A stretch of 64,000 nucleotides of DNA from Candidatus Buchananbacteria bacterium (GTDB lineage: Bacteria > Patescibacteriota > Patescibacteriia > Buchananbacterales > UBA6539): the NCBI GenBank assembly GCA_041664165.1, contig JBAYLH010000001.1, positions 9,469 through 73,468 of the forward strand, given 5' to 3'. The notes under the pieces are model-generated. The model did not search any database and was not told the DNA's origin. It saw nothing but the letters and a program-made list of their open reading frames with translations. The translations under genes were made by a program, and so were the position numbers. This document shows positions 16,943 through 49,307 of this stretch, in pieces (positions within the stretch are counted from its first letter, which is position 1; each line of letters begins with the position of its first letter).

Positions 16943-17132
16943 ATTTCCCGCTAGAAATTAAAGGTTAAAAAGGCTTAAATTTTGGGCATTTTATAGTAAT
17001 TTCTGAATCTAAGCACCCAAACTCCATTAATCACTTCTAATGGGGTAAAATCGCCAAATTTAAGCAAATAAGACTACTTCATTGTAACGCTAAAAGCCAT
17101 TCTGGTCAAAAGAACAGCGGGGGTCAAAAATG

Positions 17133-17161
17133 TTGACAAAAATATTAGAATATGCTATAGT
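17133..17161 (+). promoter_or_regulatory. Near-consensus sigma-70 promoter (TTGACA-N17-TATAGT) of GC-rich cassette i
   Basis: ttgacaaaaatattagaatatgctatagt. Confidence 0.5.
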
Positions 17162-17223
17162 ACAATCTGCTTCGGATACCGCAACCAACTGGGCTACAAA
17201 CCAGCCCAATAAGAAAGGAAGCT

Positions 17224-17436
17224 ATGTTAAACCGAGTTTGGATGGTAATCGTGGTTGGCGGTTTTCTCGGCTGTGCTGTAGCCTGGTTCTTCGGAACCAT
17301 TGGTGAATGGCCGACTGGAAAGACCGTGGCCTTGACAGCTCTAAGCTGCCTGGCTATCGGAGTCGCCATGTACCCGCTGACCCTCCGCAAGGATGGTCTC
17401 GGATACTGGGGTGTCTTGAGGAAGTATTTCTTCTGA
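17224..17436 (+). CDS. Small 2-TM membrane protein (70 aa) on a GC-rich (~55%) cassette
   Basis: MLNRVWMVIVVGGFLGCAVAWFF...; RBS aaggaag; codon usage and GC differ from the flanking genes. Confidence 0.5.
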   Translation: MLNRVWMVIVVGGFLGCAVAWFFGTIGEWPTGKTVALTALSCLAIGVAMYPLTLRKDGLGYWGVLRKYFF

Positions 17437-17453
17437 CAAGACCCCTCCCGCCC

Positions 17454-17511
17454 GCAAGGCCGCTTTAGTCGCTCCTAACCCGAGAGACGACAGCGGCCTT
17501 GTCTTCTTTCT
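17454..17511 (+). terminator. Terminator hairpin (caaggccgc...gcggccttg, then a U-rich tract)
   Basis: 9-bp perfect stem with a structured loop, then tcttctttct. Confidence 0.4.
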
Positions 17512-17566
17512 ACCGGAGTTGATTTTTTAGCTAAAAGTGCTAAACTAAAATCTGTATTTAATAACG

Positions 17567-17672
17567 GGCCTGCCTGCCGGTAGGCAGGCTGTAGTCCCGC
17601 CCTTCGCGAAGGGCGGGATAAACTCCGCTGCCCGCCCGCCTGCTTCACAGGCGAAGCGGGCGGGACTAGCGC
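17567..17672. repeat. Cluster of three strong GC-rich hairpins upstream of tRNA-Pro
   Basis: gcctgccggtaggcaggc; tcccgcccttcgcgaagggcggga; cccgcccgcctgcttcacaggcgaagcgggcggg. Not protein-coding. Confidence 0.5.
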
Positions 17673-17704
17673 GTCCCTCACCTTTAACAATCTTTCACCT
17701 TTGT

Positions 17705-17778
17705 CGGGGTGTAGCGTAATTGGTTATCGCGCACGCTTCGGGTGCGTGAGATTCCGGGTTCGAGTCCCGGCACCCCGA
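17705..17778 (+). tRNA. tRNA-Pro (anticodon CGG)
   Basis: Cloverleaf CGGGGTG/CACCCCG acceptor, anticodon arm CACGC-TTCGGGT-GCGTG, T-arm CCGGG-TTCGAGT-CCCGG. No CCA encoded. Flanked by a 13-bp inverted repeat (tccctcaccttta / taaaggtgaggga). Confidence 0.8.
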
Positions 17779-17783
17779 TAAAG

Positions 17784-17832
17784 GTGAGGGATTCGGGACG
17801 ATGAGGTCAGGAGTTCGAATCTCCCCAGCCCG
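17784..17832 (+). pseudogene. tRNA-like 3'-half fragment (T-arm GGAGTTCGAATCTCC plus acceptor-like CCAGCCCGA), probably an integration scar
   Basis: No matching 5' acceptor strand or D/anticodon arms were found upstream. Confidence 0.35.
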
Positions 17833-17837
17833 ATTTA

Positions 17838-17861
17838 GAATCGCTTGAAGCGATTTTTTTG
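17838..17861 (+). terminator. Rho-independent terminator
   Basis: aatcgct-tga-agcgatt plus T7. Confidence 0.6.
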
Positions 17862-17890
17862 TTGTCAAAAAAGCTCTAATAACTTAAAAT
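17862..17890 (+). promoter_or_regulatory. Sigma-70-like promoter TTGTCA-N17-TAAAAT
   Basis: ttgtcaaaaaagctctaataacttaaaat. Confidence 0.4.
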
Positions 17891-17897
17891 ATAACTA

Positions 17898-17952
17898 TCA
17901 CTCCTTTCGAGTCTCATCGTGTTACTGCCATTGTAAAACCGAAAGGAGGTGA
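17898..17952 (+). promoter_or_regulatory. Leader hairpin that sequesters the Shine-Dalgarno sequence (anti-SD ctcctttcg pairs with cgaaaggag)
   Basis: 9-bp perfect helix plus 4 more bp across a 1-nt bulge. The 3' strand is the RBS aaggaggtga of the downstream small ORF. Confidence 0.4.
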
Positions 17953-17957
17953 GTTCC

Positions 17958-18119
17958 ATGTTTTGGTCAAAGAAAAAGTCAAAAAATCACCAGAAAGAAA
18001 AACCGAAAAGAAAAAAAAGAGGCACCAAAAAATGGAGCTTACTCTGTATGCTCTTCGAACATAGTTGGAGTGGAATGGTCTGCCGCCGCTGCGGCATCCA
18101 TTATGAGCCGAAGAAATAA
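17958..18119 (+). CDS. Small (53 aa) highly basic protein with C-terminal Cys/His cluster (zinc-ribbon-like); below the ORF-track size cutoff
   Basis: MFWSKKKSKNHQKEKPKRKKRGTKKWSLLCMLFEHSWSGMVCRRCGIHYEPKK. Strong RBS 7 nt upstream and a terminator immediately after. Confidence 0.35.
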   Translation: MFWSKKKSKNHQKEKPKRKKRGTKKWSLLCMLFEHSWSGMVCRRCGIHYEPKK

Positions 18120-18120
18120 A

Positions 18121-18158
18121 AGCACCTATTCCCCTGAATAGGTGCTTCGTCTTTTATT
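18121..18158 (+). terminator. Rho-independent terminator (also serves the convergent korB)
   Basis: agcacctattc-ccctg-gaataggtgct, then cgtcttttatt. Confidence 0.5.
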
Positions 18159-18165
18159 AAAAATC

Positions 18166-19020: not shown

Positions 19021-19056
19021 ATTCCAAAATTTATAATTTTTAATTTATAATTTACT

Positions 19057-23402: not shown

Positions 23403-23450
23403 AAAAAAAGGAGTTGCTTGCATTTATCATAAAGCAGCAACTCCTGGTAA
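23403..23450 (-). terminator. Terminator of GC-rich cassette ii
   Basis: Minus strand ccaggagttgctgc-tttatgataaat-gcaagcaactcc plus T8. Confidence 0.5.
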
Positions 23451-23870
23451 ATCCCCCTCTGACTTCATTATGCCGACTTCGGCATTAATCTCCTTTGGTG
23501 AAACCAAAGCCTTACTTGACAGCTGGCGTTTGAGCCTGACCCGGCGCTCGGCCTCCAAAACAATGGCGATAAAAGCCGGGTTTTGCGGCAACAATCCGAA
23601 CCGAGCCCGGTCTTTGATGGTAACCAACACCAGCAGCATGCTCATCGCATTAAACTCAAAACTGAATCCCAGTTTTTTGAGTGCCAGTTGGACTTCACAC
23701 AGATTCGCTTCCAATAACACCGGATCAACTTCCTGCAGAAGTCGTTTCTTGGCTATTGCCAGATAAACGGGTGAGACCCCCAGCCGATACCAGTGTTCCT
23801 CTTCGGTAAGACGAGCGGTCAGCAAACGTGATCCAGCTTTCAGCATGCCACTTATTTGAGTACCTCCCAT
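23427..23870 (-). CDS. Hypothetical 147-aa protein on GC-rich (~52%) cassette ii
   Basis: MGGTQISGMLKAGSRLLTARLTEEEHWYRLGV...; RBS aaggaaggaggg; no recognised domain. Confidence 0.45.
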   Translation of the reverse strand: MGGTQISGMLKAGSRLLTARLTEEEHWYRLGVSPVYLAIAKKRLLQEVDPVLLEANLCEVQLALKKLGFSFEFNAMSMLLVLVTIKDRARFGLLPQNPAFIAIVLEAERRVRLKRQLSSKALVSPKEINAEVGIMKSEGDLPGVAAL

Positions 23871-23924
23871 TACGACTCCCTCCTTCCTTCCCTTAAGCTA
23901 ATTATGGCCACGGCAACTTACGAT

Positions 23925-23953
23925 AATATAACAAAAAGTTTTTCAAGTTTCAA
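23925..23953 (-). promoter_or_regulatory. Near-consensus sigma-70 promoter (TTGAAA-N17-TATATT) of cassette ii
   Basis: Minus strand cTTGAAActtgaaaaactttttgtTATATT. Confidence 0.45.
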
Positions 23954-24020: not shown

Positions 24021-24638
24021 ATGATTACGATAATTATCGATTTTTTAACCAATTTAGTTATCCAAATAATCGGCATTATCGGCTATGCCGGAATTTTTTT
24101 ATTAATGCTGGCCGAAAGCGGCGGCGTACCGATGCCGTCAGAAGTGATTATGCCGTTTTCCGGCTTTCTGGTCGAGGCCGGAAAAATGAATTTTTGGACG
24201 GTAGTTTTAATCGGTACGCTGGGAAATTTAGCCGGTTCCCTTCTAGCTTACTGGATTGGTAAGGCCGGCGGCCGGCCATTAATTGAAAAATGGGGAAAAT
24301 ATATTTTGATTTCAAAACACGACTTGGATTTAGCCGATCACTGGTTTGGCCGCTGGGGCAATTTAACCGTGTTTTTCGGCCGGCTCTTGCCGGTGGTCAG
24401 GACTTATATTTCTTTTCCGGCCGGGATCGCCAAAATGGACCTTAAAAAGTTCAGCTTCTATACTTTCATTGGTGCCCTGCCTTGGTGCATTCTCTTTACC
24501 TGGCTCGGGGTTAAAATGGGCGCTAACTGGGATTTAGTCCGGCAAAAACTCCATAACTTTGATCTGGCAATATTAATTTTAGTAATTTTAATAATTGCTT
24601 TATACGTCTGGCGACATTTGAAAAATAGAAATAAGTAA
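24021..24638 (+). CDS. DedA/SNARE-associated (VTT domain) membrane protein
   Basis: GIFLLMLAESGGVPMPSEVIMPFSGFLV and FFGRLLPVVRTYISFPAG motifs. Confidence 0.75.
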   Translation: MITIIIDFLTNLVIQIIGIIGYAGIFLLMLAESGGVPMPSEVIMPFSGFLVEAGKMNFWTVVLIGTLGNLAGSLLAYWIGKAGGRPLIEKWGKYILISKHDLDLADHWFGRWGNLTVFFGRLLPVVRTYISFPAGIAKMDLKKFSFYTFIGALPWCILFTWLGVKMGANWDLVRQKLHNFDLAILILVILIIALYVWRHLKNRNK

Positions 24639-26820: not shown

Positions 26821-26852
26821 AAAAAAATCCTCCTAACACTTGGCTAGGAGGA
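26821..26852 (-). terminator. Terminator of GC-rich cassette v
   Basis: Minus strand tcctccta-gccaagtgt-taggagga plus T8. Confidence 0.5.
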
Positions 26853-26860
26853 GCTTAACT

Positions 26861-28699
26861 TTAGCGCGCAACCTTCACCGATGCCAAACTCCCGGCAATC
26901 GTCGGCTCGTTGGAGCAAGGATTGCATAGCGGCGGCTCGACACCGCTTGGTATCAGGATTGCCAGCACTTCGGTCAAGTTGGCGTCGTGGTAGTCAGTTT
27001 CGATGTCGCACAAAAACGTACTATCCGCGTTAATAGTCGTCAACGGCCGGTTCAAGTATGGCTTGATCCACCAAGACCCGTAAGCCTTGATGTAAACCGC
27101 TACCCGGCAATCAGCGGGGTTGACGCCACTCACCTTGCCTTGCATCAGGCTAGTACTGCCGGCTGGCGGCAAATAGGTGATTTCAATGCTCGGCACCGTT
27201 ATTATCGGCGGCCAGATTGGCACTGCCAACTGCCAGCCAAAGTCGCTGACCGTTACCACGGTTTCGCTGTTATTTTGCGGACCGTTGTTATCGCTCAACC
27301 ACAGGTTGAAGTGAAATGCCTCATTGCCCGGAACTGGAATGGCTTCCCGGTCATACACCCAGGAACGCACCAGTTTTTCGGCTGGCGGCAAATTCGCCAA
27401 GGTATAGCGGCCGTAATAGGTCCGAAATTCGACATAAGTCGACTGCCACACCAAATAGTGGGTAATGTCCGGCGCCGCGTCCGGCAGCGTAACGTAATAA
27501 CGCTGGACCATGCCCAGCCAAAACGGGTTGATGGCAAACTGGGCGTTATCCGAATCGTTTGCGTTCCCCCACCGGCTGAACTCGAAGTCGAACTCCTTGT
27601 GCTTGATCATTTTCTCCGCATCCGACCAGGTAAAAAGGCCGAAAGTCAGATTCGGATCAAGTAGGTCAACGCGGCCGTGAGTCGAAAAGCAGTAAGTACC
27701 GTAGCCCAAGGATTCTTCGAGAAAAACCTCGCTGCAGTACCAATTGCCGCCAAGTTGGCGCAGGGCCAAATTGATGCCCGAGGAGTCTATCCAGACGCTG
27801 TTTTCCGTGTCGGAGAAGAAGTTCTGGCCCGGATCAATCCGTTGTCCCTCGTCGCTTCGCTTGACCGTCCATGTTCGGCCGGCAAAAGGAATCCGGCGAA
27901 TCGGCAAAATCACTTTCTTGAGCACCGCCGTGACGGTTCGATTGGCCGTCATCGTGGTCGTCGTCGGATTGGCATGAATGTTTGCGACATTGCCAGTCCA
28001 GTAATCAAATTGCCAGCCTTCGGCCGGGTTCGCTTTAACCGTAACTACGGTTCCTTGGTTATAGCGAGCGCTTGACGGCACCACCTCGCCAGATCCGCTC
28101 GGACTAACCATCGTGGTCAGCAAATACGTTGTCGGATTGACCGTAACAAATACCGCCGTGATCGTCCGATTGGCCGTCATCGCCAGCGTCGTCGGATTGG
28201 TAGAAACGTCGGCAACCTCGCCGGTCCAATGGTCAAACTGCCAGCCAGCGGCTGGACTTGCCGTCAAGCTAATCTCTTGGCCGTAAGCAAAAGTGCCACT
28301 GGCCGGGTGGACTGAGCCGCCGTTCGAAGGAACCGCCGCCGTATTCAACTCAACCTCGGCCGGCGGTTCGGTGATGGTAACATTAACCATCTGCTGATCG
28401 ACAATGCCGATGGGGCCATTGAGCATCAGGAAAAAACTGCTCTTTCCAACTTGCCCCATCGCCCTAACCGACATCGTGTTGCCAGTGATACCAACCTGGA
28501 CATATTGGCTGTCAATACCAGTCACACTCCAGGTCAAAATCCGACCAGCGCCGTTTTGGATGTGACCACTCAAGTTGATAGTACTTTCGCCCATCGGCGT
28601 CAGCACTAAATCTGAAACAGGCGGAGAAATCTTGGTCGGATGAGGGCACCCCGCCAAAGCCAACATCACAACGATTACTACCAACATTTTCTTGTACAT
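26861..28699 (-). CDS. Lipoprotein with two InlB-B-repeat (Flg_new-like) domains and a GH16-like glycoside hydrolase domain; GC-rich (~58%) cassette v
   Basis: LALAGC lipobox; duplicated GWQFDHWTGEV / GWQFDYWTGNV segments; EFDFEF fits the GH16 ExDxxE catalytic pattern. Confidence 0.55.
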   Translation of the reverse strand: MYKKMLVVIVVMLALAGCPHPTKISPPVSDLVLTPMGESTINLSGHIQNGAGRILTWSVTGIDSQYVQVGITGNTMSVRAMGQVGKSSFFLMLNGPIGIVDQQMVNVTITEPPAEVELNTAAVPSNGGSVHPASGTFAYGQEISLTASPAAGWQFDHWTGEVADVSTNPTTLAMTANRTITAVFVTVNPTTYLLTTMVSPSGSGEVVPSSARYNQGTVVTVKANPAEGWQFDYWTGNVANIHANPTTTTMTANRTVTAVLKKVILPIRRIPFAGRTWTVKRSDEGQRIDPGQNFFSDTENSVWIDSSGINLALRQLGGNWYCSEVFLEESLGYGTYCFSTHGRVDLLDPNLTFGLFTWSDAEKMIKHKEFDFEFSRWGNANDSDNAQFAINPFWLGMVQRYYVTLPDAAPDITHYLVWQSTYVEFRTYYGRYTLANLPPAEKLVRSWVYDREAIPVPGNEAFHFNLWLSDNNGPQNNSETVVTVSDFGWQLAVPIWPPIITVPSIEITYLPPAGSTSLMQGKVSGVNPADCRVAVYIKAYGSWWIKPYLNRPLTTINADSTFLCDIETDYHDANLTEVLAILIPSGVEPPLCNPCSNEPTIAGSLASVKVAR

Positions 28700-28766
28700 C
28701 TTTCAAACTCCTTGTCCTGTTGCTCCACGTTTTACTACTAATAACTCAGCCAAACCTCTCACCATC

Positions 28767-28795
28767 GGTATACTCCAAAAAAAATTAATTGTCAA
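28767..28795 (-). promoter_or_regulatory. Near-consensus promoter TTGACA-N17-TATACC of cassette v
   Basis: Minus strand TTGACAattaattttttttggagTATACC, about 70-nt leader, RBS aaggag. Confidence 0.45.
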
Positions 28796-28865: not shown

Positions 28866-28939
28866 TGGCAGGGGCGGAAGGTGATGCTCCCTCGTCTGCG
28901 GTTTTGGAGACCGCCGTTCTACTGTTGAACTACGCCCCC
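28866..28939 (-). tRNA. tRNA-Trp (anticodon CCA), intact copy with unusual T-loop
   Basis: GGGGGCG acceptor, D-arm GTTC-AACAGTA-GAAC, anticodon arm GCGGT-CTCCAAA-ACCGC, 3' CGCCCCT-G-CCA (CCA encoded). T-loop AGCATCA is atypical. Confidence 0.65.
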
Positions 28940-28954: not shown

Positions 28955-29206
28955 CTATTTTAATCCTAATCTTTTCATTAATGCCATATACACTGAACCA
29001 CTTGATTTTATTCCTTTTTCTCTTTTTAACGCCAGATATTTATCATTATATGCTTCATAATACAATAATCTTGGGTTTTTGTCCTTGGTTGTTTTTACCC
29101 GACCTGACAAATGTTCCTCTAACCTCTTTTTAAGATCCGAGGCATAACCAATATAAAAATCTTTATTTTTAATACCATCAATTTTTAATAAATAAACGTA
29201 GTACAT
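28955..29206 (-). CDS. Small GIY-YIG nuclease family protein (copy 1)
   Basis: MYYVYLLKIDGIKNKDFYIGYASDLKKRLEEH is the GIY-YIG motif. 83 aa. Confidence 0.75.
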   Translation of the reverse strand: MYYVYLLKIDGIKNKDFYIGYASDLKKRLEEHLSGRVKTTKDKNPRLLYYEAYNDKYLALKREKGIKSSGSVYMALMKRLGLK

Positions 29207-29960: not shown

Positions 29961-30200
29961 TTATTTCAAAATACTATCTAAATATTTTCTGCCTTGACCT
30001 GATTTTAAAAATTTTTCTCTTTTCATTGTCTCAGCTCTAGTTGAAAACTCTTCTTGATAAACTAACAGCCAAGGTCTCCTTCCTTTGGTATATCTGCACT
30101 TGCTCCGATTATGCTCCTCTATTCTCTTAACGACATTTTCCGTACTGCCAATATACCTATTTAAATATTTTACACTTTTTAAGACATAAACATAATACAT
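29961..30200 (-). CDS. Small GIY-YIG nuclease family protein (copy 2)
   Basis: MYYVYVLKSVKYLNRYIGSTENVVKRIEEH. Start taken at the internal Met at 30200; the track ORF runs to 30266 through GC-rich hairpin DNA. Confidence 0.7.
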   Translation of the reverse strand: MYYVYVLKSVKYLNRYIGSTENVVKRIEEHNRSKCRYTKGRRPWLLVYQEEFSTRAETMKREKFLKSGQGRKYLDSILK

Positions 30201-30202
30201 AG

Positions 30203-30314
30203 CAACATATATATAGTCAGCAAGGTTGGGCGGATTCCCCGCCAGAGCCTGTCTGTCGGCAGACAAGGCGAGTGCGCCTCTTGAGCCAGAGGCTCATCTG
30301 TTTTCGGTATGAGG
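30203..30314. repeat. GC-rich hairpin cluster between GIY-YIG copy 2 and the orphan tRNA-Tyr
   Basis: gcctgtctg-tcgg-cagacaagg; gcctct-tgagcc-agaggc. Confidence 0.4.
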
Positions 30315-34459: not shown

Positions 34460-34488
34460 TTGACAAAAATAGTAATTTATGCTAAGAT
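34460..34488 (+). promoter_or_regulatory. Near-consensus promoter TTGACA-N17-TAAGAT of GC-rich cassette iii
   Basis: ttgacaaaaatagtaatttatgctaagat, followed by an ~90-nt leader and RBS agaaggagga. Confidence 0.5.
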
Positions 34489-34585
34489 TAGCTGCTATTG
34501 CTCATTGAATTATCCTTTTAATCCTGCCGGTTAGAAGGTTGAATCTGTTAGAACAAAACAACACAAAAAGAAGGAGGATTCTGCA

Positions 34586-35149: not shown

Positions 35150-35170
35150 GCCGCACCGGCAAAAACAAAC

Positions 35171-35211
35171 AGGCACCAGGCCAATTGAGTCTGGTGCCTT
35201 TTCTTTTTTTT
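35171..35211 (+). terminator. Rho-independent terminator
   Basis: aggcaccag-gccaattgagt-ctggtgcct, then TTTTCTTTTTTTT. Confidence 0.6.
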
Positions 35212-35222
35212 AAGCATTCTAA

Positions 35223-36662
35223 CTATTTCAATTTTGTTGCCAGCCCCTTATCTGCATCAACTTCGACTAAATCACCGGTTTTAAAAATCTTAGTTGCAAA
35301 CTTAGTCCCAATAATGCACGGCTTTTTAAATTCCCGAGATATTATCGCCGCATGGCTCAGTACTCCCCCTTCGTCAGTTACCACCGCGGCGGCTTGTTTG
35401 ACTAATGACACCATATTCGTTGTCGTCATTTGGGTTACTAAAATGCTGCCTTTTTTAAATTTAACTTTAGAAAAATCAACTCCCGTTTGAATCAGCATCA
35501 CTCGACCCGTTACCTTGCCGTTATAGGCGGCAAAGCCAGAGACCTTTAAAGACTTAGCTATGGTTGGCTCTAAAATTTTTCGGATTCTTTTAATTTCCGC
35601 CGTCGTTAAAACCTGCCAGCGGCCATGAAGCATTAATACCCCGTTGTCTTTAAACCGGCGGGCAATTTCTCGCTTATTGATTTTGCCGGAAATTACTTCC
35701 GGCGGGGTCAATTCAATAAATTGTTCATAAGACAAGTCAAGTGTTTTGGCTAATTTTTCAAACAATGGCCGAACCAAATAATAAATCCGGGTTGCTTCCT
35801 CAATTTTAACCGAATGCCAATGAGTTGCTTCGGCTAAAATATCAGCCATTTTTTTCAGCCGCTGGCTGGGCCAGTGCGATAAAATTTGCCGACGCTGAGA
35901 AATCAATTTCAGCCGGTCGCGTTCAGCTACTCGCAGCAAAGCCGCTGGATTTTTTCTAAGTAATGGTAGCAATTCTTTTTTCAGCTGTTGAATCGTCAAC
36001 GGATGCTGCTGATACAACCAGGAATTTTTCCAACCCCAATAATTACGGTGCTTCAAGATGTCTCTTTCGTGTTTTTTTAGGCCATCGTTTTTAATTTTTG
36101 CCGCCAATTTCAATAATGCAACATGCTCCTGATTATGTAAAGTCTTTTTCGGCGATTGGCCTAAAATTTTAAATAAACGGGAAAAATCATGCGGCGAAAT
36201 TTTTAGTTCATTAAATAAATCCCTGATTTCAAATTCAATGGCATCGCCTAATAAAAACGGCAAATAGCACCAATGCCAAATTATATTAATCTGCCGTTCA
36301 AACTCAAGATACAATTTTTTTAATTGCTGCTCGCTGAATTCTTCTTTTTCAAGACGCGGTTGAAGGCGGCGAACCCAGTTGGAAAGCTTTTTTGATTCTA
36401 AAAAATATCGCCGAAACCATTGAAAAGCCTGCTCTGGCCGGCGACTTAAAATACTTCTAAGTTCCTTAATTAATGCCTGCGACTCCGACTCTGATAAATA
36501 AGAACCGCCGCTGATCCGGCAATAAGTCTTTATCCGAGACTTAAAATTGCCGACTCGGTGAGTCCTTAAGAGTCCTTGATTCAGTTCATAAATTAAAAGG
36601 GTGGGATACTTGCCCCGAGCTACAATTTTTCGCCAATTTTGCGCCGACGGAATTTTTAGCAT
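35223..36662 (-). CDS. Protein with C-terminal PEP-utilising-enzyme mobile (phosphohistidine swivel) domain; N-terminal region unknown
   Basis: C-terminal GGVLSHAAIISREFKKPCIIGT. 479 aa. Last gene of a four-gene operon. Confidence 0.5.
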   Translation of the reverse strand: MLKIPSAQNWRKIVARGKYPTLLIYELNQGLLRTHRVGNFKSRIKTYCRISGGSYLSESESQALIKELRSILSRRPEQAFQWFRRYFLESKKLSNWVRRLQPRLEKEEFSEQQLKKLYLEFERQINIIWHWCYLPFLLGDAIEFEIRDLFNELKISPHDFSRLFKILGQSPKKTLHNQEHVALLKLAAKIKNDGLKKHERDILKHRNYWGWKNSWLYQQHPLTIQQLKKELLPLLRKNPAALLRVAERDRLKLISQRRQILSHWPSQRLKKMADILAEATHWHSVKIEEATRIYYLVRPLFEKLAKTLDLSYEQFIELTPPEVISGKINKREIARRFKDNGVLMLHGRWQVLTTAEIKRIRKILEPTIAKSLKVSGFAAYNGKVTGRVMLIQTGVDFSKVKFKKGSILVTQMTTTNMVSLVKQAAAVVTDEGGVLSHAAIISREFKKPCIIGTKFATKIFKTGDLVEVDADKGLATKLK

Positions 36663-36664
36663 AT

Positions 36665-38053
36665 TTACAATTCGTAATGGGCTTTGGCAATGGCTAGCTT
36701 TGTCTTTTGAGCCAGCGACTTTAAAGCCGGACTAATCTCAGACGAATATTTTACCCGCTGATTAACCGCGAATAAAGCCGGGCTGAATTTTTTGCACTCG
36801 GCTTGATAATGCTGATTTATTTTTTGCAAAGCCGGCAGTTTACAAACCAGCTTGCCTTTTTTAATAATCGGCATCAGCAATTTTTTACCGCTAATTTTTT
36901 CCTCATCCAGTCCGACGATATCTCTAAAATATTTTCCGTCCTTAGTTTGGCGAAAGACCTGCTTTTTCCCCGGATAAGATAATTTGCCTTCGGAAAGTTT
37001 CATTTTGGGAATTACGGCTGACCCGTCAATCATTTCGCTTAGCTTGCTGACAAAGCCTAATTTCGGCGCATCCGGCGAGGTGGTCAGCTCTTCCCCGCCC
37101 ACGACCACATCGGCAATCATGCCTTGTTTATACATCTTGGTAATTTTATATTCATCTAAGTTTGAGATTAAAATTATCTTAACTTCTTTCAAGCCCGCCT
37201 GATCTAATTTTTTTCTGGCAATTTTGCTTTGTTTGACCAAATCGCCGCTATCGAATTGAATCATATTCGGAAACGGTTTTTTTTGCTTCTTCAATTCTTT
37301 GGCGACTTTGATGAAAATAGCCAAACCTTTCATTGAATCATAAGTATCAAGTAGCCAAAGTCCCCGACCCCGGCAATATTTAGAAAAAACCCTTAAGGCC
37401 TGCTCTTCGGTGGCAAAAGAAGAAATAAAAGAATGAGTAACAGCGCCTTTTTCAACTTCCAAATTATTGCGCAAACCAAATATCGGCATAGCCGCCAGGT
37501 CAACCCCGACCGACTTAGCCGCTCTTAAAGCGATCGCGGAAGCTTGCGGGCCGTGGGCGCGGATAAAATTAACGCCGGTCGTTATTCCCGGTTTAACCGA
37601 ATGGACAAACCGCGACATTTTGGTAGTCAGAACCGAATAAGCCATCACCGCATTTAAAACATAGCGCTCAATAATCTGAGCTTCGATTAAAGGCGCACAG
37701 ATTCGCATAACTGGTTGGTAAGGAAAAAATAGTGAGCCTTCCGGCATCGCGTATAAATCGCCGGTAAACCGAAAATTACGGTAATATTCCATTACTTCAT
37801 CGGAAAAATTATAGCCTTTTTTCAGATATTCAAGCTGGGCTTGATCAAATTTCAAATTGAGTAAATAATCAACCACCGGCTCCAGCCCGGCAAAAACTAG
37901 ATAATTGCGGCAAGCCGGCATTTCGCGGACAAAAATATCATGAGTGCCCCAAAGATTCTGCATTCCTTCAGAAACCATCATTCCACCCGTGGCAATGAAC
38001 CCGCCGCTGGTAAAAAGCGACAATTCCTCTTGGGTAATAAATTCATTAAACAT
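36665..38053 (-). CDS. Nicotinate phosphoribosyltransferase-like protein (paralog B)
   Basis: AGLEPVVDYLLNLKF...FRFTGDLYAMPEGSLFFPYQPVMRI...EAQIIERYVLNAVMAYSVLTTKMSR and FDSGDL fit the NAPRTase family pattern. 462 aa. Confidence 0.55.
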   Translation of the reverse strand: MFNEFITQEELSLFTSGGFIATGGMMVSEGMQNLWGTHDIFVREMPACRNYLVFAGLEPVVDYLLNLKFDQAQLEYLKKGYNFSDEVMEYYRNFRFTGDLYAMPEGSLFFPYQPVMRICAPLIEAQIIERYVLNAVMAYSVLTTKMSRFVHSVKPGITTGVNFIRAHGPQASAIALRAAKSVGVDLAAMPIFGLRNNLEVEKGAVTHSFISSFATEEQALRVFSKYCRGRGLWLLDTYDSMKGLAIFIKVAKELKKQKKPFPNMIQFDSGDLVKQSKIARKKLDQAGLKEVKIILISNLDEYKITKMYKQGMIADVVVGGEELTTSPDAPKLGFVSKLSEMIDGSAVIPKMKLSEGKLSYPGKKQVFRQTKDGKYFRDIVGLDEEKISGKKLLMPIIKKGKLVCKLPALQKINQHYQAECKKFSPALFAVNQRVKYSSEISPALKSLAQKTKLAIAKAHYEL

Positions 38054-38067
38054 AATTAATTATTTAT

Positions 38068-39453
38068 TTATAAATCATAATGGACTTTATAAATCGTCTT
38101 TTTGGTTTTTTGAGTCAATTTGGCTAACTCCGGACTGATTTTTACCTGATAACTTGTTTTATGGCTAATGGAAAAAAGATTGCTGAAAAATTTTTTCCGC
38201 TCCTTTTCGTAGCGGCGGTTAATCTCTTCCGGCGTCGGCAAATTATACCTTAATTTTCCTTTTTCAATCATCGGCAAAAGCAGCCGCTGGCCTTTAATTT
38301 TTTCCGCTTCCAGTCCGACAATGTCTTTAGAATACCGGCCATTTTTAATCTGCCGAAATACCTGTTTTTTCCCAGGCAAAGAAACTTTACCGACTGACAA
38401 TTTCATTTTGGGAATCGGCTGGCCGTTTTTAATAACTTCGCTCAATTTATAAACCACGCTTAGCTTGGGCGCGTCGGGCGAAGTGGTCAATTCCTCGCCG
38501 GCAACATAATAATCAGCTGCTGCTCCCTGCTGATTCATTTTTTTAACCCGGTGTTCGTTCAAATTCGACAGTAACATTATTTTCACGTCTTTTAAATTCG
38601 TCCGGTCAAGCAATTTTCTGGCAACTTTGCTTTGCTTGACCAAATCGCCGCTGTCAAACAAAACATACGGCGGATAAAACTTTTTTTTCTTTTTTAATTC
38701 CGAAGCAACTTTGATAAAAATATCAAGGCCTTTTTTGGCGTCATAAGTATCAAGCAGCCAAAGCCCCTTGCCCCGGCAATATTTGGCATAAGTCCTCAAG
38801 GCCGCTTCTTCGGTCGGAAAAGAAGAAATATAAGCGTGCGTTGTCCCGCCGCTGTCTGGTTTTAATTTGTGTTTCTGGCTGATATAAGGGATACTTGCCA
38901 TTTTAGCCCCGACAATTTTAGCCGAACGCAGGGAAATATTTGAAGCCTCAATCCCTTGAGCTCGCGTGTAATTAAGGCCGCAGCTGACCTGACCGGCGGC
39001 GATGACAAACCGGGAAATTTTTGAGGCTAAAACCGTATAAACCATTACCCGATTGATAATAAATCTTTCAATCAGCTGGGCTTCGATAATCGGCGCCGAA
39101 ATTGTCATTACCGGCTCATTGGCAAAAAACAAACTCCCCTCCGGCATCGCCCAAACATTTCCCGAAAACCGCAGCTGTCGATAATATTTCATTACGGCCG
39201 GCGGAAAACCATAACTTTTTTTCAAATAGCTTAGCTGATCCTTGGTCAATTTATAATCAAGCAAATAATGAATAATGTTTTCCAGGCCGGAAAACACCAA
39301 ATAATTTCTATTTTCCGGCAAGTCGCGGACAAACACGTCGTAAGTTACCCATAAATCTTTCATTCCTTCCTGAAAATAAATCGACCCTAAAACAAAACAA
39401 GCGCCACTGGTATAAAAAGGCAAATCTTCTTTTTCAACGAATTCATCAAACAT
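38068..39453 (-). CDS. Nicotinate phosphoribosyltransferase-like protein (paralog A, tandem duplicate)
   Basis: Collinear with paralog B along the whole length (SGLENIIHYLLDYKL...FRFSGNVWAMPEGSLFFANEPVMTI...FDSGDL). 461 aa. Confidence 0.55.
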   Translation of the reverse strand: MFDEFVEKEDLPFYTSGACFVLGSIYFQEGMKDLWVTYDVFVRDLPENRNYLVFSGLENIIHYLLDYKLTKDQLSYLKKSYGFPPAVMKYYRQLRFSGNVWAMPEGSLFFANEPVMTISAPIIEAQLIERFIINRVMVYTVLASKISRFVIAAGQVSCGLNYTRAQGIEASNISLRSAKIVGAKMASIPYISQKHKLKPDSGGTTHAYISSFPTEEAALRTYAKYCRGKGLWLLDTYDAKKGLDIFIKVASELKKKKKFYPPYVLFDSGDLVKQSKVARKLLDRTNLKDVKIMLLSNLNEHRVKKMNQQGAAADYYVAGEELTTSPDAPKLSVVYKLSEVIKNGQPIPKMKLSVGKVSLPGKKQVFRQIKNGRYSKDIVGLEAEKIKGQRLLLPMIEKGKLRYNLPTPEEINRRYEKERKKFFSNLFSISHKTSYQVKISPELAKLTQKTKKTIYKVHYDL

Positions 39454-39456
39454 AAA

Positions 39457-40224
39457 TTATATTCCGCCTCCGTCTTCAAATTCTTCCTGATTTCTCATAA
39501 ACTCACCCAGATTATAACGGCGAAGCTGCTCTTGAGTTTCTTCATCGACCGGCACGCCTAAACTTTGCCAATAATAACTCTCAACAATTTTTTCCGTTAA
39601 TTCCGCGCCTTGCGGCTCATTGCCCAAAACATAAACATTATCCAATATTTTCGGGTCATTAAGCTTTTTTTCTTTCCTGGCTTGCAAAGTTAAAAGGTCA
39701 GTATGTTTTAAAGTTGGATCCAAAATAATCACCGGCCGGACTGGTTTTTCTTCTTCGCCGATTCGCTGACCAATCCGCTCGCTTTCCAACGCCGTAAATA
39801 ATTCAACCACGGTTCCCTGTCCCCCGCCTAAAACGACATAGGCGCTAGACTCATCAACTAAATGGCCCAACCGCTGCGGCAAAGTTTCAGACCGGATAAC
39901 TCCGGCTTTCTTGGCCTCTCTTGATCTTAATTTTTCCGCTTCAAAAGTAAAAGCTTTAACCATTGCTTTTGGTTTCAGTCCGAGCGCTTCGGCTTTTTCG
40001 ACGCCGGCTTCGCTGGCCGCTTTCATCACCCCGCCATAGCCGCCGGTGCCAAGACTAAAGCCATTTTCAACCAGCCGAGTCGCAACTTGACTGGCGTTTT
40101 CGATAGCAATTTTATCTTCTTTGGTTGTCTCGCCGCCGGTGCCAAAAATCGCCACTTGGTAAGCTGCTCGCCGTTCTGACGAATCTTGACTTTCTCTTGC
40201 TCCCTCTGGTCCTTTGGTTCTCAT
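39457..40224 (-). CDS. LOG-family (TIGR00730) Rossmann-fold nucleotide phosphoribohydrolase-like protein
   Basis: GTGGYGGVMKAAS and VLGGGQGTVVEL motifs. Confidence 0.6.
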   Translation of the reverse strand: MRTKGPEGARESQDSSERRAAYQVAIFGTGGETTKEDKIAIENASQVATRLVENGFSLGTGGYGGVMKAASEAGVEKAEALGLKPKAMVKAFTFEAEKLRSREAKKAGVIRSETLPQRLGHLVDESSAYVVLGGGQGTVVELFTALESERIGQRIGEEEKPVRPVIILDPTLKHTDLLTLQARKEKKLNDPKILDNVYVLGNEPQGAELTEKIVESYYWQSLGVPVDEETQEQLRRYNLGEFMRNQEEFEDGGGI

Positions 40225-45345: not shown

Positions 45346-45374
45346 TTGACAAAACGAAAAAAAGACGGTAGTAT
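45346..45374 (+). promoter_or_regulatory. Near-consensus promoter TTGACA-N17-TAGTAT of cassette iv
   Basis: ttgacaaaacgaaaaaaagacggtagtat. Confidence 0.5.
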
Positions 45375-45457
45375 AGAAATCTATTACTATGTTCCTTTGT
45401 CTCAAATCTGTGGTAAACGCAACCGATTAACTGCTGCCCCGTAAAGGAGGTGATAAC

Positions 45458-45709
45458 GTGGCTACTGCAATTGCGACACCCGACCAGATTCTCCGTGATC
45501 TACTCCAGGCCTGCCATGACGCCAGCGGACACTTGATTCTAGCGGCATTCGAAGAAGATAAGTTCAGAGCCTTAACCCTGGAGGAAGGAGCCCATCATGG
45601 AATCAAAGACGCACCCCAGCCCGACCAGCGCTGGAAAAACCAGGTCACTATGCCGGCCGGCGAGGTTTTTGAGATACGTACACCTCATCCTCTCGCATTG
45701 GCCGACTAA
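45458..45709 (+). CDS. Hypothetical 83-aa protein (GTG start) at the edge of the GC-rich pyr island
   Basis: RBS gtaaaggaggtgataacGTG; MATAIATPDQILRDLLQACHDASGHLILAAF...; followed by a terminator. Confidence 0.45.
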   Translation: MATAIATPDQILRDLLQACHDASGHLILAAFEEDKFRALTLEEGAHHGIKDAPQPDQRWKNQVTMPAGEVFEIRTPHPLALAD

Positions 45710-45730
45710 TAACACAGGCCCCCCCTCTCC

Positions 45731-45763
45731 GAGAGAACGCCAAAAACGTCCTCTCTTTTTTTT
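45731..45763 (+). terminator. Terminator (gagagaacg-ccaaaaa-cgtcctctc plus T8). An adjacent hairpin serves the convergent pyr operon
   Basis: Stem with one mismatch, then T8. The minus-strand hairpin accgcttctactcctgcagggaatgggagcggc plus T7 lies at 45766-45810. Confidence 0.45.
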
Positions 45764-45815
45764 ATAAAAAAAGCCGCTCCCATTCCCTGCAGGAGTAGAA
45801 GCGGTTTTTGGCTTT

Positions 45816-47459
45816 TCAAGCATGAATAGCCGAGACAATTTGCCCAGTACTGAAGCGATGCCGACAGTAAGCACAGTCGAAACTGGTCTTACCATCATAC
45901 GAATTGACATGAAGAAAACTTTCAGCTTCCGGGTCAATTCGGGTCACACAAGCTTCGTTGGGGCATATAAAGATCCTCGCAACTGCGGTTGGCGGACGAA
46001 ACATCAGCTTGCGATACAGACTTTCCTTCAATTCAATAACCCGCAAACTACCGACCAAGAGTGTCAGCGCCGCCAACACATCCTCTGACACAAACGCATC
46101 GGGCAAAAAGACAATATCCTTTCTACCCATTTCAGTTGACCTCTGGCGCTGAGCAATAATACTTGAGCTGCCAAGTCCTCCATGCACACCGGCACGGTTA
46201 ATAACGGCATCAACCATCAACCCAAAACCAGCCGTAATCCGATCAAGCACCATTCCCTTGTCTAAAGGATTAATAGCACGCTGTTCCGCTTGCCATCGTT
46301 CCTGCATTTTCTGCCAGTGGCTATGAATCTCCTCTGACGCCAAAACATCATAGGGAAACGATTTTGGAATGGTCAGCAAGTCCATATGCTGTTTTCGGTG
46401 CCCCCAACACATCTGGAAAACCGCCGTACGAGTTGGCGAACCCATTATTGCTTGTATATCCATAATAACCTGAGATTCGTTCCATATTGCCGGATCAATC
46501 ATCGGCCGCAAGACATCAAGCGGTTGAGCATCCATAATCAATGCCTCAGACTTATCAATAAATCGCCTATTAACCTGAATGGCCGAAAGAATAGCCTCAG
46601 CATCAGCGATAGTCATAACATTGCCCAACCGTTCGATTTGCGTTCGAATAGTATAGACAACATTATAAGCCACAGCATCGTCGAGCTTATCAGACACTGC
46701 AACGCGAAGACCCTGACATCGCCAAGCTTCAACCTGAAAAGAGTCAGGTGCAACCAACAGATATTGAATCTTGAAGTGCCGGCCTAAATCAAGCCAGCTG
46801 TTAGTTACCCGGCTATTACGCAAATCACCGACCAGTGCAATTTTCAGATTATCAAAGTGATTGGTAATAAACTCCGCCAAATCATCATCTGTGAGCTGTG
46901 TCAGACTAGATTCCAACCGCGCTACGCCAATTTCATTATTGGACGTCATTCCCAGGGCATGAGCAACAATCGTTACCATATCAAGCAGCACTTGCGTCGG
47001 ATGATTTTGCCGCCCGTCGCCGCCATTGATAATTGGCGTCTCCCGAAACCATTCAGGAAAACGACTAGATTCCCGCTCAAGATACAATGCCGCCTGCGTC
47101 GCATAACCTTCAACTGTTGTACGATAGCACATCATCCGATTCTGCTGTTGAATCGCCGTAATGGTTGCACGCGTTGGCGGTTCACCCTTCTTTAAGCTAC
47201 TAGTCTCTGGCGTAATCGGATTTGAACAACGAAAACCAGCCCGGACAGCGGCTTCTCTTAGAGTCCCAATCGTCCGCGAAGATGGTTCCTCAAACAAAAA
47301 TCCAACCTGAGGTACTAACCATCCGTCGCTGAATTCCAGTCGCAATTCGGGAGGTGGCAACTGATTACGGTAGTAGTAAGGCACCAAACGCAGCGCCCGC
47401 ACCACAACAGCGAGAATTTCATCTCGTGTCAATAAGTTTATTCCAATACAATGTTTCAT
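45816..47459 (-). CDS. pyrB: Aspartate carbamoyltransferase, fused catalytic (PyrB) and regulatory (PyrI) chains
   Basis: STRTR-like FEEPSSRTIGTL and HPTQ motifs in the N-terminal 300 aa. C-terminal EMGRKDIVFLPDAFVSEDVL...ICPNEACVTR...DCAYCRHRF matches the PyrI allosteric and zinc domains. Start taken at MKHCIGINLL with RBS gaaggagg; the track ORF extends to 47558. Confidence 0.8.
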   Translation of the reverse strand: MKHCIGINLLTRDEILAVVVRALRLVPYYYRNQLPPPELRLEFSDGWLVPQVGFLFEEPSSRTIGTLREAAVRAGFRCSNPITPETSSLKKGEPPTRATITAIQQQNRMMCYRTTVEGYATQAALYLERESSRFPEWFRETPIINGGDGRQNHPTQVLLDMVTIVAHALGMTSNNEIGVARLESSLTQLTDDDLAEFITNHFDNLKIALVGDLRNSRVTNSWLDLGRHFKIQYLLVAPDSFQVEAWRCQGLRVAVSDKLDDAVAYNVVYTIRTQIERLGNVMTIADAEAILSAIQVNRRFIDKSEALIMDAQPLDVLRPMIDPAIWNESQVIMDIQAIMGSPTRTAVFQMCWGHRKQHMDLLTIPKSFPYDVLASEEIHSHWQKMQERWQAEQRAINPLDKGMVLDRITAGFGLMVDAVINRAGVHGGLGSSSIIAQRQRSTEMGRKDIVFLPDAFVSEDVLAALTLLVGSLRVIELKESLYRKLMFRPPTAVARIFICPNEACVTRIDPEAESFLHVNSYDGKTSFDCAYCRHRFSTGQIVSAIHA

Positions 47460-47475
47460 AATTTCCCTACCTCCT

Positions 47476-48378
47476 TCATCTACATTCTGCCTTTTTCTGC
47501 CTGAACTCTTCCAAGCTACCAAACCCATTCTGCTCCAACCAACCTGCAATTCCCTCAATGATTTCTGCCATCACCAAGGGATTGCCAAAATTGGCTGTCC
47601 CGACTGCCACCGCGCTAGCGCCGGCCCAAAGAAACTCCAGGGCGTCGCTAGCCGAGGCAATACCACCCATGCCAATCACCGGGATTTTTACCGCCCGGCA
47701 AACTTCCCAAACCTTTCGCAGGGCTTGCGGCATTATCGCCGGACCCGACAAACCACCACTGATAATAACTTGACCCGTATTGGGATTAATGCGCATGGCA
47801 GTAAACGTGTTGACCGCCACAATCGCATTAGCTCCTTCTCGTTCGGCCGCTTTGGCAATGGCGGCAATGTCAGTTACGTTCGGTGTCAACTTGACGATCA
47901 AAGGCAGGCCAGTTGCCAACCTCGTAGCACGGACGATCTCAGCGGTGAGCTGAGGGTCAGTACCGATGATTGTGCCGCCGACATTGGGACAAGAGATATT
48001 AAGTTCAATGCCACTGATTCTGGTGTCCCCAAGACATTGCGCCAAATGCACGTATTCCTGTGGCGTCTTGCCGGCAATACTGACGATGACCGGCTGGCCA
48101 AAGGACAGCCAGACCGATAACTCGTCCGCCAAGAATCTATCAATACCAGGACCAGCTAAGCCAATCCAATTGATTAGACCGCTCGCAGTCTCACGAAGCC
48201 GTGGCGGCGGATTGCCCGGCCTTGGCTCAATGGTAACGCTTTTAGTCACCAAAGCTCCGGGTCGAAACCGACCCGCCTCAAGGAGAATTTTCTGGCTTTC
48301 AATCCCCCAAGTGCCCGAAGCCGGAACTACCGGATTATCCATCCTGATTCCAGCTAATCCCACAGTTAAATCAACCAT
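47476..48378 (-). CDS. pyrD: Dihydroorotate dehydrogenase 1B catalytic subunit
   Basis: MVDLTVGLAGIRMDNPVVPASG start with RBS ggaggtg; FMN-binding pattern. Confidence 0.85.
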   Translation of the reverse strand: MVDLTVGLAGIRMDNPVVPASGTWGIESQKILLEAGRFRPGALVTKSVTIEPRPGNPPPRLRETASGLINWIGLAGPGIDRFLADELSVWLSFGQPVIVSIAGKTPQEYVHLAQCLGDTRISGIELNISCPNVGGTIIGTDPQLTAEIVRATRLATGLPLIVKLTPNVTDIAAIAKAAEREGANAIVAVNTFTAMRINPNTGQVIISGGLSGPAIMPQALRKVWEVCRAVKIPVIGMGGIASASDALEFLWAGASAVAVGTANFGNPLVMAEIIEGIAGWLEQNGFGSLEEFRQKKAECR

Positions 48379-49222
48379 TCCAATCCACCTCCGAAGCGTC
48401 AAAAATCGGCCCATCTTCGCAGACGTAACGAGTTTCACCGCTAGTCATTTTGACAACGCAGCCTTTGCAAACGCCCAAGGCGCAACCCATCACCTCTTCC
48501 AGAAAAACTGAGCAGTCAATTCCTGCTGCCCGACAGATACCCGCAACTTCAGCCATCATCGGCTTCGGTCCGCAAGTGAACAGCTGGATTTTACTCCAAT
48601 CAGGCAGACTTTCGTCGCGAAAGATTTCCCGGCAGAGATCAACTGCCGTTTTTCCAGCTTCCTGCTGAGTCGCAAATTTCAGCTCGACTCCCAGTTTCCG
48701 GAAATCTTCCAGTCCAAAGACATACCGATTATCGCGAAAACCAGCCGCGACAATGATCCGAGCTTGGGTCTGTTTTTTCGCCCAAGCAACCGGATAGCCA
48801 AACGAAGCTAAGCCGCAGCCACCGCCTAAAAAAATCAGGCACTCCGCGTCTGGCTTAATTGCCATTGCCTGGCCGCAAGGACCAAGCAGTGAAACTTCCA
48901 CTCCCTCTTTCCACCGAGCATATCGCTCTGTGTTCGGACCGACTGTCCGAAAGACCAGCCGGATAGTCTGGCCGTCCGTTGAGTAAACTGTGAACGGCCG
49001 CCGCAAAACCGAAGTTTGACTGGCCGCCACGGTTACAAATTGGCCAGGCCTAACCAATTTGGCAATTCCCGGACAAAGCAGGTCGGCGGCATAGATGCCG
49101 TCGTTGACTCCTTTGTCGGTTCGGCCAGGTGCCAGCCGAATTAGCTCTTGGACTGTTGCTGTCGTCGCTACTATCATATCACTCCTCCTCCTAAAATAGG
49201 CTAAGTTGAGACAAAATGGCAC
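48371..49222 (-). CDS. pyrK: Dihydroorotate dehydrogenase electron-transfer subunit (FAD/2Fe-2S)
   Basis: FAD/NAD fold plus C-terminal CALGVCKGCVVK...YVCEDGP iron-sulfur cluster ligands; RBS aggaggaggag. Confidence 0.8.
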   Translation of the reverse strand: MPFCLNLAYFRRRSDMIVATTATVQELIRLAPGRTDKGVNDGIYAADLLCPGIAKLVRPGQFVTVAASQTSVLRRPFTVYSTDGQTIRLVFRTVGPNTERYARWKEGVEVSLLGPCGQAMAIKPDAECLIFLGGGCGLASFGYPVAWAKKQTQARIIVAAGFRDNRYVFGLEDFRKLGVELKFATQQEAGKTAVDLCREIFRDESLPDWSKIQLFTCGPKPMMAEVAGICRAAGIDCSVFLEEVMGCALGVCKGCVVKMTSGETRYVCEDGPIFDASEVDWNG

Positions 49223-49231
49223 AAAAAAATA

Positions 49232-49258
49232 ACGGCCCGCGCCGTTAATCTTTGGTTG
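49232..49258 (-). terminator. Terminator downstream of recO, upstream of the pyr operon
   Basis: Minus strand taacggc-gcgg-gccgtta plus T7. Confidence 0.4.
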
Positions 49259-49307
49259 TCAAATAACAACCTCCTTCAAGAAATATTATCAGAGTTTAGC
49301 ACATCAG

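Follow-up and report, generated by a model that had tools for sequence, protein, structure and literature searches.

A conserved association of Shine-Dalgarno-led starts with GC-rich accessory genes in an otherwise Shine-Dalgarno-less Patescibacteria genome

The 64,000-nucleotide stretch of contig JBAYLH010000001.1 analyzed here (hereafter the window; 42.8% GC overall, with the Buchananbacteria as its closest named relatives) raises the question of how a few GC-rich genes, each in a compact transcription unit, came to stand among AT-richer housekeeping genes, and what keeps them distinct. An earlier note on this DNA listed five such islands, units i to v, the fourth together with a pyrimidine (pyr) operon. 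It proposed that they were recently acquired from a higher-GC donor, perhaps in a common vehicle, or that they form an undescribed family of expression modules. We found that island genes start with a canonical Shine-Dalgarno (SD) sequence, which native genes lack, and that this difference is kept in distant relatives. In a genome that is otherwise SD-less, this clean and conserved link between SD-led starts and GC-rich accessory genes is the point of interest of this locus. We lean, if only slightly, towards reading the islands as mutually unrelated accessory genes that were acquired horizontally, have long resided in the lineage, and depend on SD-led initiation.

The layout attributed to the five islands (promoter, leader, SD, coding sequence, terminator) was present with every coordinate and motif given. 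Consensus scans and direct reading gave the promoter motifs, from which transcription starts and leader lengths were deduced. Start codons lie 54-97 nt from the -10 element across the units, for predicted leaders of ~50-100 nt. A hairpin with a T-run closes every unit; the T7-8 ending claimed for all of them does not hold for unit i. The island gene set comprises eight genes (i, ii, iii, iv, v, pyrBI, pyrD, and pyrK), and we identified one further SD-led unit. Their predicted features, with the GC content of each coding sequence (CDS) as a fraction, are as follows.

17133 to 17511, plus strand: unit i, with predicted promoter, leader, SD, CDS, and hairpin
17133 to 17161, plus strand: promoter of unit i, TTGACA-17-TATAGT
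17224 to 17436, plus strand: CDS of unit i, 70 aa with two transmembrane segments (2-TM), SD AAGGA, GC.538
about 17456 to 17505, plus strand: hairpin of unit i, ending in tcttctttct instead of T7-8
17704 to 17779: tRNA-Pro, adjoining unit i
17862 to 18157, plus strand: sixth SD-led unit, absent from the earlier note's list
17862 to 17890, plus strand: promoter of the sixth unit, TTGTCA-17-TAAAAT
17958 to 18119, plus strand: CDS of the sixth unit, 53 aa, CxxC-type, SD AAAGGAGGTGA, terminator at 18120-18147
23403 to 23953, minus strand: unit ii, promoter TTGAAA-17-TATATT at 23953-23925, SD AAGGAGG
23427 to 23870, minus strand: CDS of unit ii, 147 aa, orphan, followed by a hairpin and T7, GC.498 (marginal)
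26821 to 28795, minus strand: unit v, promoter TTGACA-17-TATACC at 28795-28767, SD AAGGAG
26861 to 28699, minus strand: CDS of unit v, 612-aa lipoprotein, terminator at 26852-26821, GC.543, GC at third codon positions (GC3).657
28866 to 28939, minus strand: tRNA-Trp, adjoining unit v
34460 to 35211, plus strand: unit iii, promoter TTGACA-17-TAAGAT at 34460-34488, SD AAGGAGG, TTG start
34586 to 35149, plus strand: CDS of unit iii, 187 aa, leader hairpin at 34514-34538, terminator at 35171-35211, GC.557
45346 to 45765, plus strand: unit iv, promoter TTGACA-17-TAGTAT at 45346-45374, SD AAGGAGGTGAT, GTG start
45458 to 45709, plus strand: CDS of unit iv, 83 aa, terminator at about 45718-45765, GC.552
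45777 to 49311, minus strand: pyr operon with pyrK, pyrD, and a pyrB-pyrI fusion, each gene with its own SD
48371 to 49177, minus strand: pyrK, SD AGGAGG, GC.534
47476 to 48378, minus strand: pyrD, SD GGAGGTG, GC.533
45816 to 47459, minus strand: pyrB-pyrI fusion (pyrBI), SD AAGGAGGT, GC.473
45795 to 45777, minus strand: terminator of the pyr operon
49308 to 63146, minus strand: native comparison set (recO, ruvX, map, adk, secY, ribosomal-protein operon), no canonical SD

A canonical SD, counted only at 4-10 nt upstream of the start codon, precedes all eight island genes as well as the 53-aa open reading frame (ORF) of the sixth unit. It precedes none of the ~65 native starts of the window, ribosomal-protein genes included (hypergeometric p about 1e-10, from a hand count). 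The earlier remark that native SDs are mostly weak was therefore an understatement. Native starts have a context of their own: T occupies position -1 in 83% of the 60 native ATG genes vs 38% of island genes, A makes up 45-53% of native positions -3 to -7, and G at -15 to -5 amounts to 11% in native genes vs 48% in island genes. The same split appears in five other genomes (L066, L010, L014, L064, and L148), where 49 native genes have T at -1 in 84% of cases and an SD-like site in 2%, as opposed to 20% and 90%, respectively, for 10 island orthologues. T at -1 together with an A-rich, G-poor stretch is a lineage-wide signature of non-SD initiation, and translation initiation, not the promoter, is the real discriminator of island genes.

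We also assessed this association in loci of other, unrelated Patescibacteria (L006-L024) that had been fetched for other reasons. Among genes with a GC content at least 0.07 above the median of their locus, 15 of 23 are SD-led, vs 16 of the 205 others (odds ratio 22, p=7e-10). Part of this material comes from the DedA gene, which was dropped as a synteny anchor because its context is not conserved, and whose loci were reused for this independent test. The GC-rich SD-led class in one of these loci (L015) comprises a LeuA-like synthase, PheA (prephenate dehydratase), and a DAHP synthase. To our knowledge, biosynthetic enzymes of this type are unusual in genomes of the Candidate Phyla Radiation (CPR).

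The abrupt GC steps at the island borders could in principle come from assembly or binning, if GC-rich fragments of another organism had been joined into a Patescibacteria contig. The earlier note had itself considered that the borders might coincide with contig joins. Matching contigs from independent assemblies of three samples (L001 from JGI, L002 and L003 from two Logan runs) span islands ii, v, and iii plus both flanks with 99.6-100% identity. Furthermore, the same arrangement is found in other species, and the promoters and leaders of the islands are A/T-rich and pass continuously into the flanking DNA. Because three independent assemblies cross the borders, a chimera is excluded, its probability being close to nil, and the islands are real genome features.

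The promoters had been regarded as foreign to this genome. Of the 29 native genes preceded by a gap of 45 bp or more, six show a promoter match of 10/12 or better across a 17-bp spacer, the best being tpiA (TTGAGA-17-TATAAT) and scpB (TTGTCA-17-TATAAT). Since tpiA, scpB, HU, DedA, and uppS have sigma-70 matches equal to those of the islands, the island promoters are not foreign. Nor do the cassettes share any sequence beyond the -35, -10, and SD motifs, so that neither a common origin or vehicle nor an undescribed module family is supported. The att-like direct repeats across island borders reach 9-11 nt at best, are of low complexity, and lie within the null expectation (95th percentile 10). 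No integrase or recombinase was found among the ORFs inside or flanking any island; the only nuclease genes nearby are two GIY-YIG ORFs (28955-29206 and 29961-30266), which are not integrases. The scans of viral contigs revealed no relatives of v, iii, or ii, and the island neighbours (uppS, OFOR, DedA, HU, scpB, aspS, recO) are housekeeping genes, not prophage genes. Elsewhere the window carries, among others, a ribosomal-protein/secY/adk/map operon, PilT, the GIY-YIG ORFs, and a 23S-IVP-type gene. The search of the window with Rfam identified five tRNAs and nothing else, with no riboswitch in any leader.

The compositional contrast, by comparison, was borne out. The GC content of neighbouring genes is mostly.36-.45, and the islands are atypical (47-56% CDS GC); the 52-58% given before is somewhat overstated for ii and pyrBI. 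Judged by dinucleotide and tetranucleotide distance, each of the eight island CDSs lies in the upper tail of native windows of matched length, with a fraction of 0-0.085 of these null windows being as distant or more so. The 53-aa ORF, with a GC content of.41, is not atypical in composition. Island proteins have a FYMINK fraction of.16-.25 vs.32 in native ones, and are GARP-rich. Amino-acid composition and twofold codons carry the excess, joined in v and iii by overall GC3 (.60 in iii). It is largely an amino-acid-level effect, and is also visible at the codon level for v, iii, i, and iv. The native set, which includes the ribosomal-protein genes, averages a C/(C+T) of 0.26 at twofold sites. 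Translational selection was rejected as a cause of the high GC3, because the ribosomal-protein genes have ordinary or low GC3.

To date the islands, we compared the window with relatives: L010 (a Candidatus Buchananbacteria genome), L014, L066 (35% GC), and L069, as well as L070, L148, and L149 for single units. Units iii and iv, the pyr operon, and the 53-aa ORF have positional orthologues across the first four, with protein identities of 30-61% for island genes and 57-83% for native genes. In L010 and L014, where native orthologues are 57-81% identical, the iii orthologue (58-61% amino-acid identity) lies on the opposite strand between scpB and a PEP-utilizers gene; distant iii homologues in L148 and L149 also stand among PEP-utilizers genes. 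The order in L066 is rp operon-secY-adk-map-ruvX-recO-pyrK-pyrD-pyrBI-[iv, opposite strand]-aspS-...-scpA-scpB. Unit iv thus sits between aspS and pyrBI in L066 (99 aa), as it does in L010 (88 aa), with its own TTGACA promoter and/or a AAAGGAGG SD, and pyrBI is at the same position in L010 as in the window. In a rough neighbour-joining tree, the PyrD proteins of this clade cluster on long branches. In L069, the order 2-TM small ORF, tRNA-Pro, ..., 53-aa ORF homologue, OFOR is kept, and the homologue of the 53-aa ORF has an AGGAGG SD at the same position. The small ORF of L069 (71 aa, beside tRNA-Pro, with TTGACA-17-TATACT, a leader, and AGAGG) has no detectable protein homology to unit i; we consider the two positional analogues. 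More generally, orthologues retain the TTGACA-17 promoter, the leader, the SD, and the terminator. The 10-bp hairpin in the iii leader is conserved with compensatory changes, and the v promoter is conserved with L007.

Other units are patchy. Unit ii is absent from the matching slot in L069 and L070 (DedA is also missing in L069), and only 2 remote homologues of it were found among 1.84 billion representatives. Unit v is absent from the L010 slot, and its full-length homologues are confined to unrelated loci of other low-GC, Patescibacteria-like contigs (L006, L007/L008, L009), with a GC content of.52-.57 vs.37-.42 for the surroundings and a GC3 of.57-.685 in four low-GC genomes. For iii, there are five homologue clusters, all in Patescibacteria-like contexts. 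L066 has scpA next to scpB and lacks iii, along with the PEP-utilizers partner of iii, two NAPRTase genes, and LOG. The genes that part scpB from scpA in the window (35223-40224, minus strand: a PEP-utilizers gene, two NAPRTase-like genes, and a LOG gene) are neither GC-rich nor SD-led, unlike the neighbouring iii.

In every relative compared, the island homologue is GC-richer than its surroundings, with an excess that tracks the GC content of the host. For iii, the pairs of gene GC and host GC are.41/31%,.50/39%,.54/40%,.56/43%, and.53/47%; in L066, the pyr genes have a GC content of.44 vs.27-.38 for native genes. The atypical composition, the promoter and terminator of each unit, the tRNA genes found beside i and v as the earlier note had said, and the absence of ii and v from equivalent slots in some relatives are what one might expect if the islands had recently come from a higher-GC donor, possibly in one vehicle or as a family of moron- or cassette-like mobile expression modules. 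Yet synteny and signals are conserved in distant relatives, no near-identical donor was found among 5.8 billion proteins, the promoters are of native type, and neither att repeats above chance, shared cassette sequence, nor viral relatives were found. As regards iii, iv, and the pyr operon, recent acquisition has by now been largely refuted, and we consider it very improbable for the islands as a whole. What had been proposed is partly supported: horizontal acquisition is the most economical source of this compositionally and translationally distinct set of genes, but its recency is not supported.

A horizontal origin is supported by the patchy presence among relatives, by v standing at different loci in other Patescibacteria, and by the foreign-type functions of the GC-rich SD-led class, with the pyr genes here and the biosynthetic enzymes of L015. 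Horizontal gene transfer (HGT) in Patescibacteria is reported to be abundant, mostly old, and for 83% within the phylum (PMC12455944). We thus favour the following scenario, drawn from the comparisons above. Each island would be an ordinary, self-contained transcription unit, with a native-type sigma-70 promoter and an intrinsic terminator, that reached the lineage horizontally. SD-using, less AT-biased genomes would have been the ultimate sources, and some genes, e.g., v, may later have been exchanged among Patescibacteria. Native genes begin translation in an A/T-rich, G-poor context that has T at -1 but lacks an SD. Without this context, the acquired genes would rely on pairing of the SD with the 16S rRNA. 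This dependence would explain why selection kept their SDs, promoters, and terminators across deep divergence, while their GC excess drifted with host GC and did not converge. The retention of SDs in A/T-rich leaders, despite saturated silent sites in iii, argues that the SDs are used. Their use in turn predicts that the lineage retains the anti-SD.

Several observations weigh against this scenario. First, fourfold-site GC is.47-.69 in island genes and.58 +/-.08 in native ones, i.e., it does not differ, so part of the apparently foreign signal is amino-acid composition only. Second, the fourfold sites of the iii orthologues are saturated (identity.24-.36 vs.25-.27 expected) and the GC excess is still present, which fits a passive foreign relic poorly and suggests selection or a biased process. 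Third, no donor could be pointed to. No homologues of iii, ii, i, or iv were found outside Patescibacteria-like contigs. The best non-self matches of PyrD are flat at 49-56% identity across Armatimonadota, Clostridia, Poribacteria, Margulisbacteria, NC10, and Buchananbacteria, with no outside phylum closer than Buchananbacteria and no close donor in the protein search mentioned above. Finally, about half of Parcubacteria reportedly lack the anti-SD motif in 16S rRNA (PMC9297842). We searched for the 3' end of the 16S rRNA in the window and 148 loci, and found only one, in a Verrucomicrobia locus; rpsU, rpsR, and rpsF are not in the window.

Only part of the lasting GC excess is accounted for: much of it reflects amino-acid composition, the remainder requiring slow amelioration, selection, or biased conversion. 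One might instead suppose that recombination maintains the excess in accessory genes often exchanged among Patescibacteria, through GC-biased gene conversion or the shared composition of a mobile pool from which the SD was inherited. This would suit the v homologues at different loci in four low-GC genomes with their high GC3, the lower identity of island than of native orthologues in the same genomes, the excess persisting despite saturated silent sites, and the predominance of within-phylum HGT (PMC12455944). Still, the synteny of iii, iv, and the pyr operon is stable, and fourfold GC is not elevated although biased conversion should act most on silent sites. We find this explanation improbable.

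A different question is whether the SD-led minority marks a dedicated regime of translation. The lineage could have an SD-independent core genome side by side with an SD-dependent, GC-rich accessory minority: ribosomes would normally ignore the SD, as in Bacteroidia, and the SD would be a regulatory tag rather than a leftover. The SD-led genes would then be translated only where the anti-SD is available, in a sub-population of ribosomes or a physiological state. The SD/non-SD split is indeed all-or-none and conserved across deep divergence, SDs are kept in A/T-rich leaders of units with strong promoters, and Bacteroidia offer a precedent, with an SD-led rpsU and an anti-SD that bS21/bS18/bS6 sequester (PMC7797042, PMC9976891, PMC13000453). 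Native CDSs are also depleted of SD-like pentamers, with GGAGG observed 34 times vs 66 expected (z=-4). However, the complements CCTCC and CTCCT are depleted as strongly, so that the depletion is not specific to the mRNA strand. In the native CDSs of the window, L066, L069, L010, L014, L068, L070, and L072, GGAGG, AGGAGG, CCTCC, and CTCCT are two- to six-fold below synonymous-codon shuffles, and GGCGG is enriched 1.6-fold; candidate causes of the depletion are restriction avoidance and anti-SD avoidance. Moreover, the SD-led set is functionally mixed (a glucanase lipoprotein, a phosphatase-like protein, pyr enzymes, orphans) and patchy in relatives, and hence resembles an accessory gene pool more than a regulon. 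We hold two regimes to be rather unlikely. If they did exist, anti-SD availability could control or insulate a surface glucanase, pyrimidine enzymes, and a phosphohistidine-phosphatase-like protein, in a manner comparable to, yet independent of, the bS21-gated system of Bacteroidia.

The cargo of the islands is largely what had been read from the letters alone. The v protein combines a lipobox with two Flg_new_2 repeats and a GH16-fold domain. The model of this domain by AF2 (pLDDT 82) has GH16 glucanases as its top Foldseek matches without exception (target-normalised TM up to.68), and the ExDxE residues E100, D102, and E104 are invariant in 18 homologues. With its predicted beta-jelly-roll fold and its ExDxE motif, the domain agrees with GH16 in these features, even though no Pfam or NCBIfam match covers it. 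The iii protein matches the histidine phosphatase-type folds of RosC, PGAM5, and SixA (TM.5-.57) and the profile of the FBPase-2 domain (E=.0017). In its motif, THGE replaces RHGE: the first Arg is Thr in 6/6 homologues, and the His and the second Arg are invariant. This SixA-like family always adjoins one to three PEP-utilizers (PF00391) genes, as in the window (34586-36662), with a PPDK_N gene as well in L149. Its neighbourhood suggests that iii is a putative phosphohistidine-phosphatase partner of split PEP-utilising enzymes. The PyrB-PyrI fusion has all four Pfam domains, lies below its family threshold (NCBIfam 120 bits vs a cutoff of 263), and is very divergent, with 31% identity to the syntenic L010 protein and 53% to that of L066. 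The locus holds pyrK, pyrD, and pyrBI; pyrC, pyrE, pyrF, and carAB are absent from it. Given this divergence and the missing genes, the enzymatic role is only putative. In the pyrK leader (49311-49178, minus strand), a promoter-like TTGACT-17-TAATAT sits within the 3' end of recO, and a hairpin TTAACGGCGCGGGCCGTTA followed by T7 lies 5' of the SD; this hairpin may serve as the terminator of recO or as a pyr attenuator.

The surroundings of the tRNA genes have features of their own. On the minus strand (29327-28866), a partial duplicate of the 5' half of tRNA-Trp, with 33 nt identical to the intact gene, is broken just before the anticodon loop by a 54-nt GC-rich hairpin (29293-29240), followed by the first GIY-YIG ORF and then by the intact tRNA-Trp. 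This looks like the insertion of a homing endonuclease with target duplication. The second GIY-YIG ORF adjoins tRNA-Tyr. Between unit i and tRNA-Pro, there is a GC-rich (about 65%) multi-hairpin element (17560-17700) without an Rfam match; a search of the region around unit i and tRNA-Pro at a relaxed threshold gave none either. The core of this element, GGCTGTAG-CCCG..CGGG-TAAACTCCGCTG..CCCGCC, is kept in L069 (15045-14995, minus strand) with compensatory stem changes. The tRNA-Pro gene is bracketed by an inverted repeat (CCCTCACCTTT / AAAGGTGAGGG) and directly followed, at 17780-17850, by a tRNA-like 3' fragment (GGTCAGGAGTTCGAATCTCCCCAGCCCGA) that is not a copy of its 3' end. Finally, the DedA/VTT gene (24021-24638, plus strand) has 65-78% identical homologues in many Patescibacteria lineages, in unrelated contexts (L015-L024), and 38-54% identical ones in DPANN-type archaea. 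Although native-like in composition, it may itself be a mobile gene.

If the association holds genome-wide, the presence of an SD would offer a simple, sharp way to recognise acquired genes in SD-less Patescibacteria, and a sharper one than GC content, since the native RarA (.495) is as GC-rich as ii and has no SD. It would also imply that the ribosomes of ultra-small bacteria still recognise the SD although their own genes do not use it, which bears on start-codon choice by reduced ribosomes and on the expression of foreign genes in CPR bacteria. GC-rich islets in metagenome-assembled genomes should not automatically be taken for recent transfers or chimeras, as those described here are as old as tens of percent of protein divergence.

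These islands can be set beside several known systems. The gene cassettes of integrons consist of a promoterless ORF and an attC site, unlike the present units, which have their own promoters and share no sequence beyond the -35, -10, and SD motifs. Phage morons (PMC3594210) also have their own promoter and terminator, stand between unrelated genes, and differ from their neighbours in composition; the present units, however, stand among housekeeping genes and lack viral homologues, and several of them are stably syntenic across species. As in tRNA-linked integrative islands, composition is atypical and presence variable (iii is absent from L066, ii from L069 and L070, v from the L010 slot), but there is neither an integrase nor att repeats, and iv and the pyr operon are conserved. 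There is also a likeness to the HGT islands of Patescibacteria (PMC12455944), which are atypical accessory genes, mostly of within-phylum origin, mostly not recent, and metabolic additions to reduced genomes; here, the islets are single genes or one operon without mobility genes, and that work does not describe a link with SD use or the conservation of a GC excess across hosts. On the SD in Patescibacteria or CPR, a literature search found only one relevant report, that of anti-SD loss in some Parcubacteria (Tsurumaki et al. 2022, PMC9297842). That report deals with 16S rRNA features only, in the same superphylum, and agrees with native genes being SD-less; were the anti-SD truly absent, one would not expect the conserved SDs found here. 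The SD-independent translation of Bacteroidia (PMC7797042, PMC9976891, PMC13000453, PMC13000457) resembles the present case in that most genes are SD-less with an A-rich context and a few have strong SDs. There, however, the SD-led gene is rpsU, for autoregulation, whereas here the SD-led genes are GC-rich accessory genes set among native genes that start after a T at -1.

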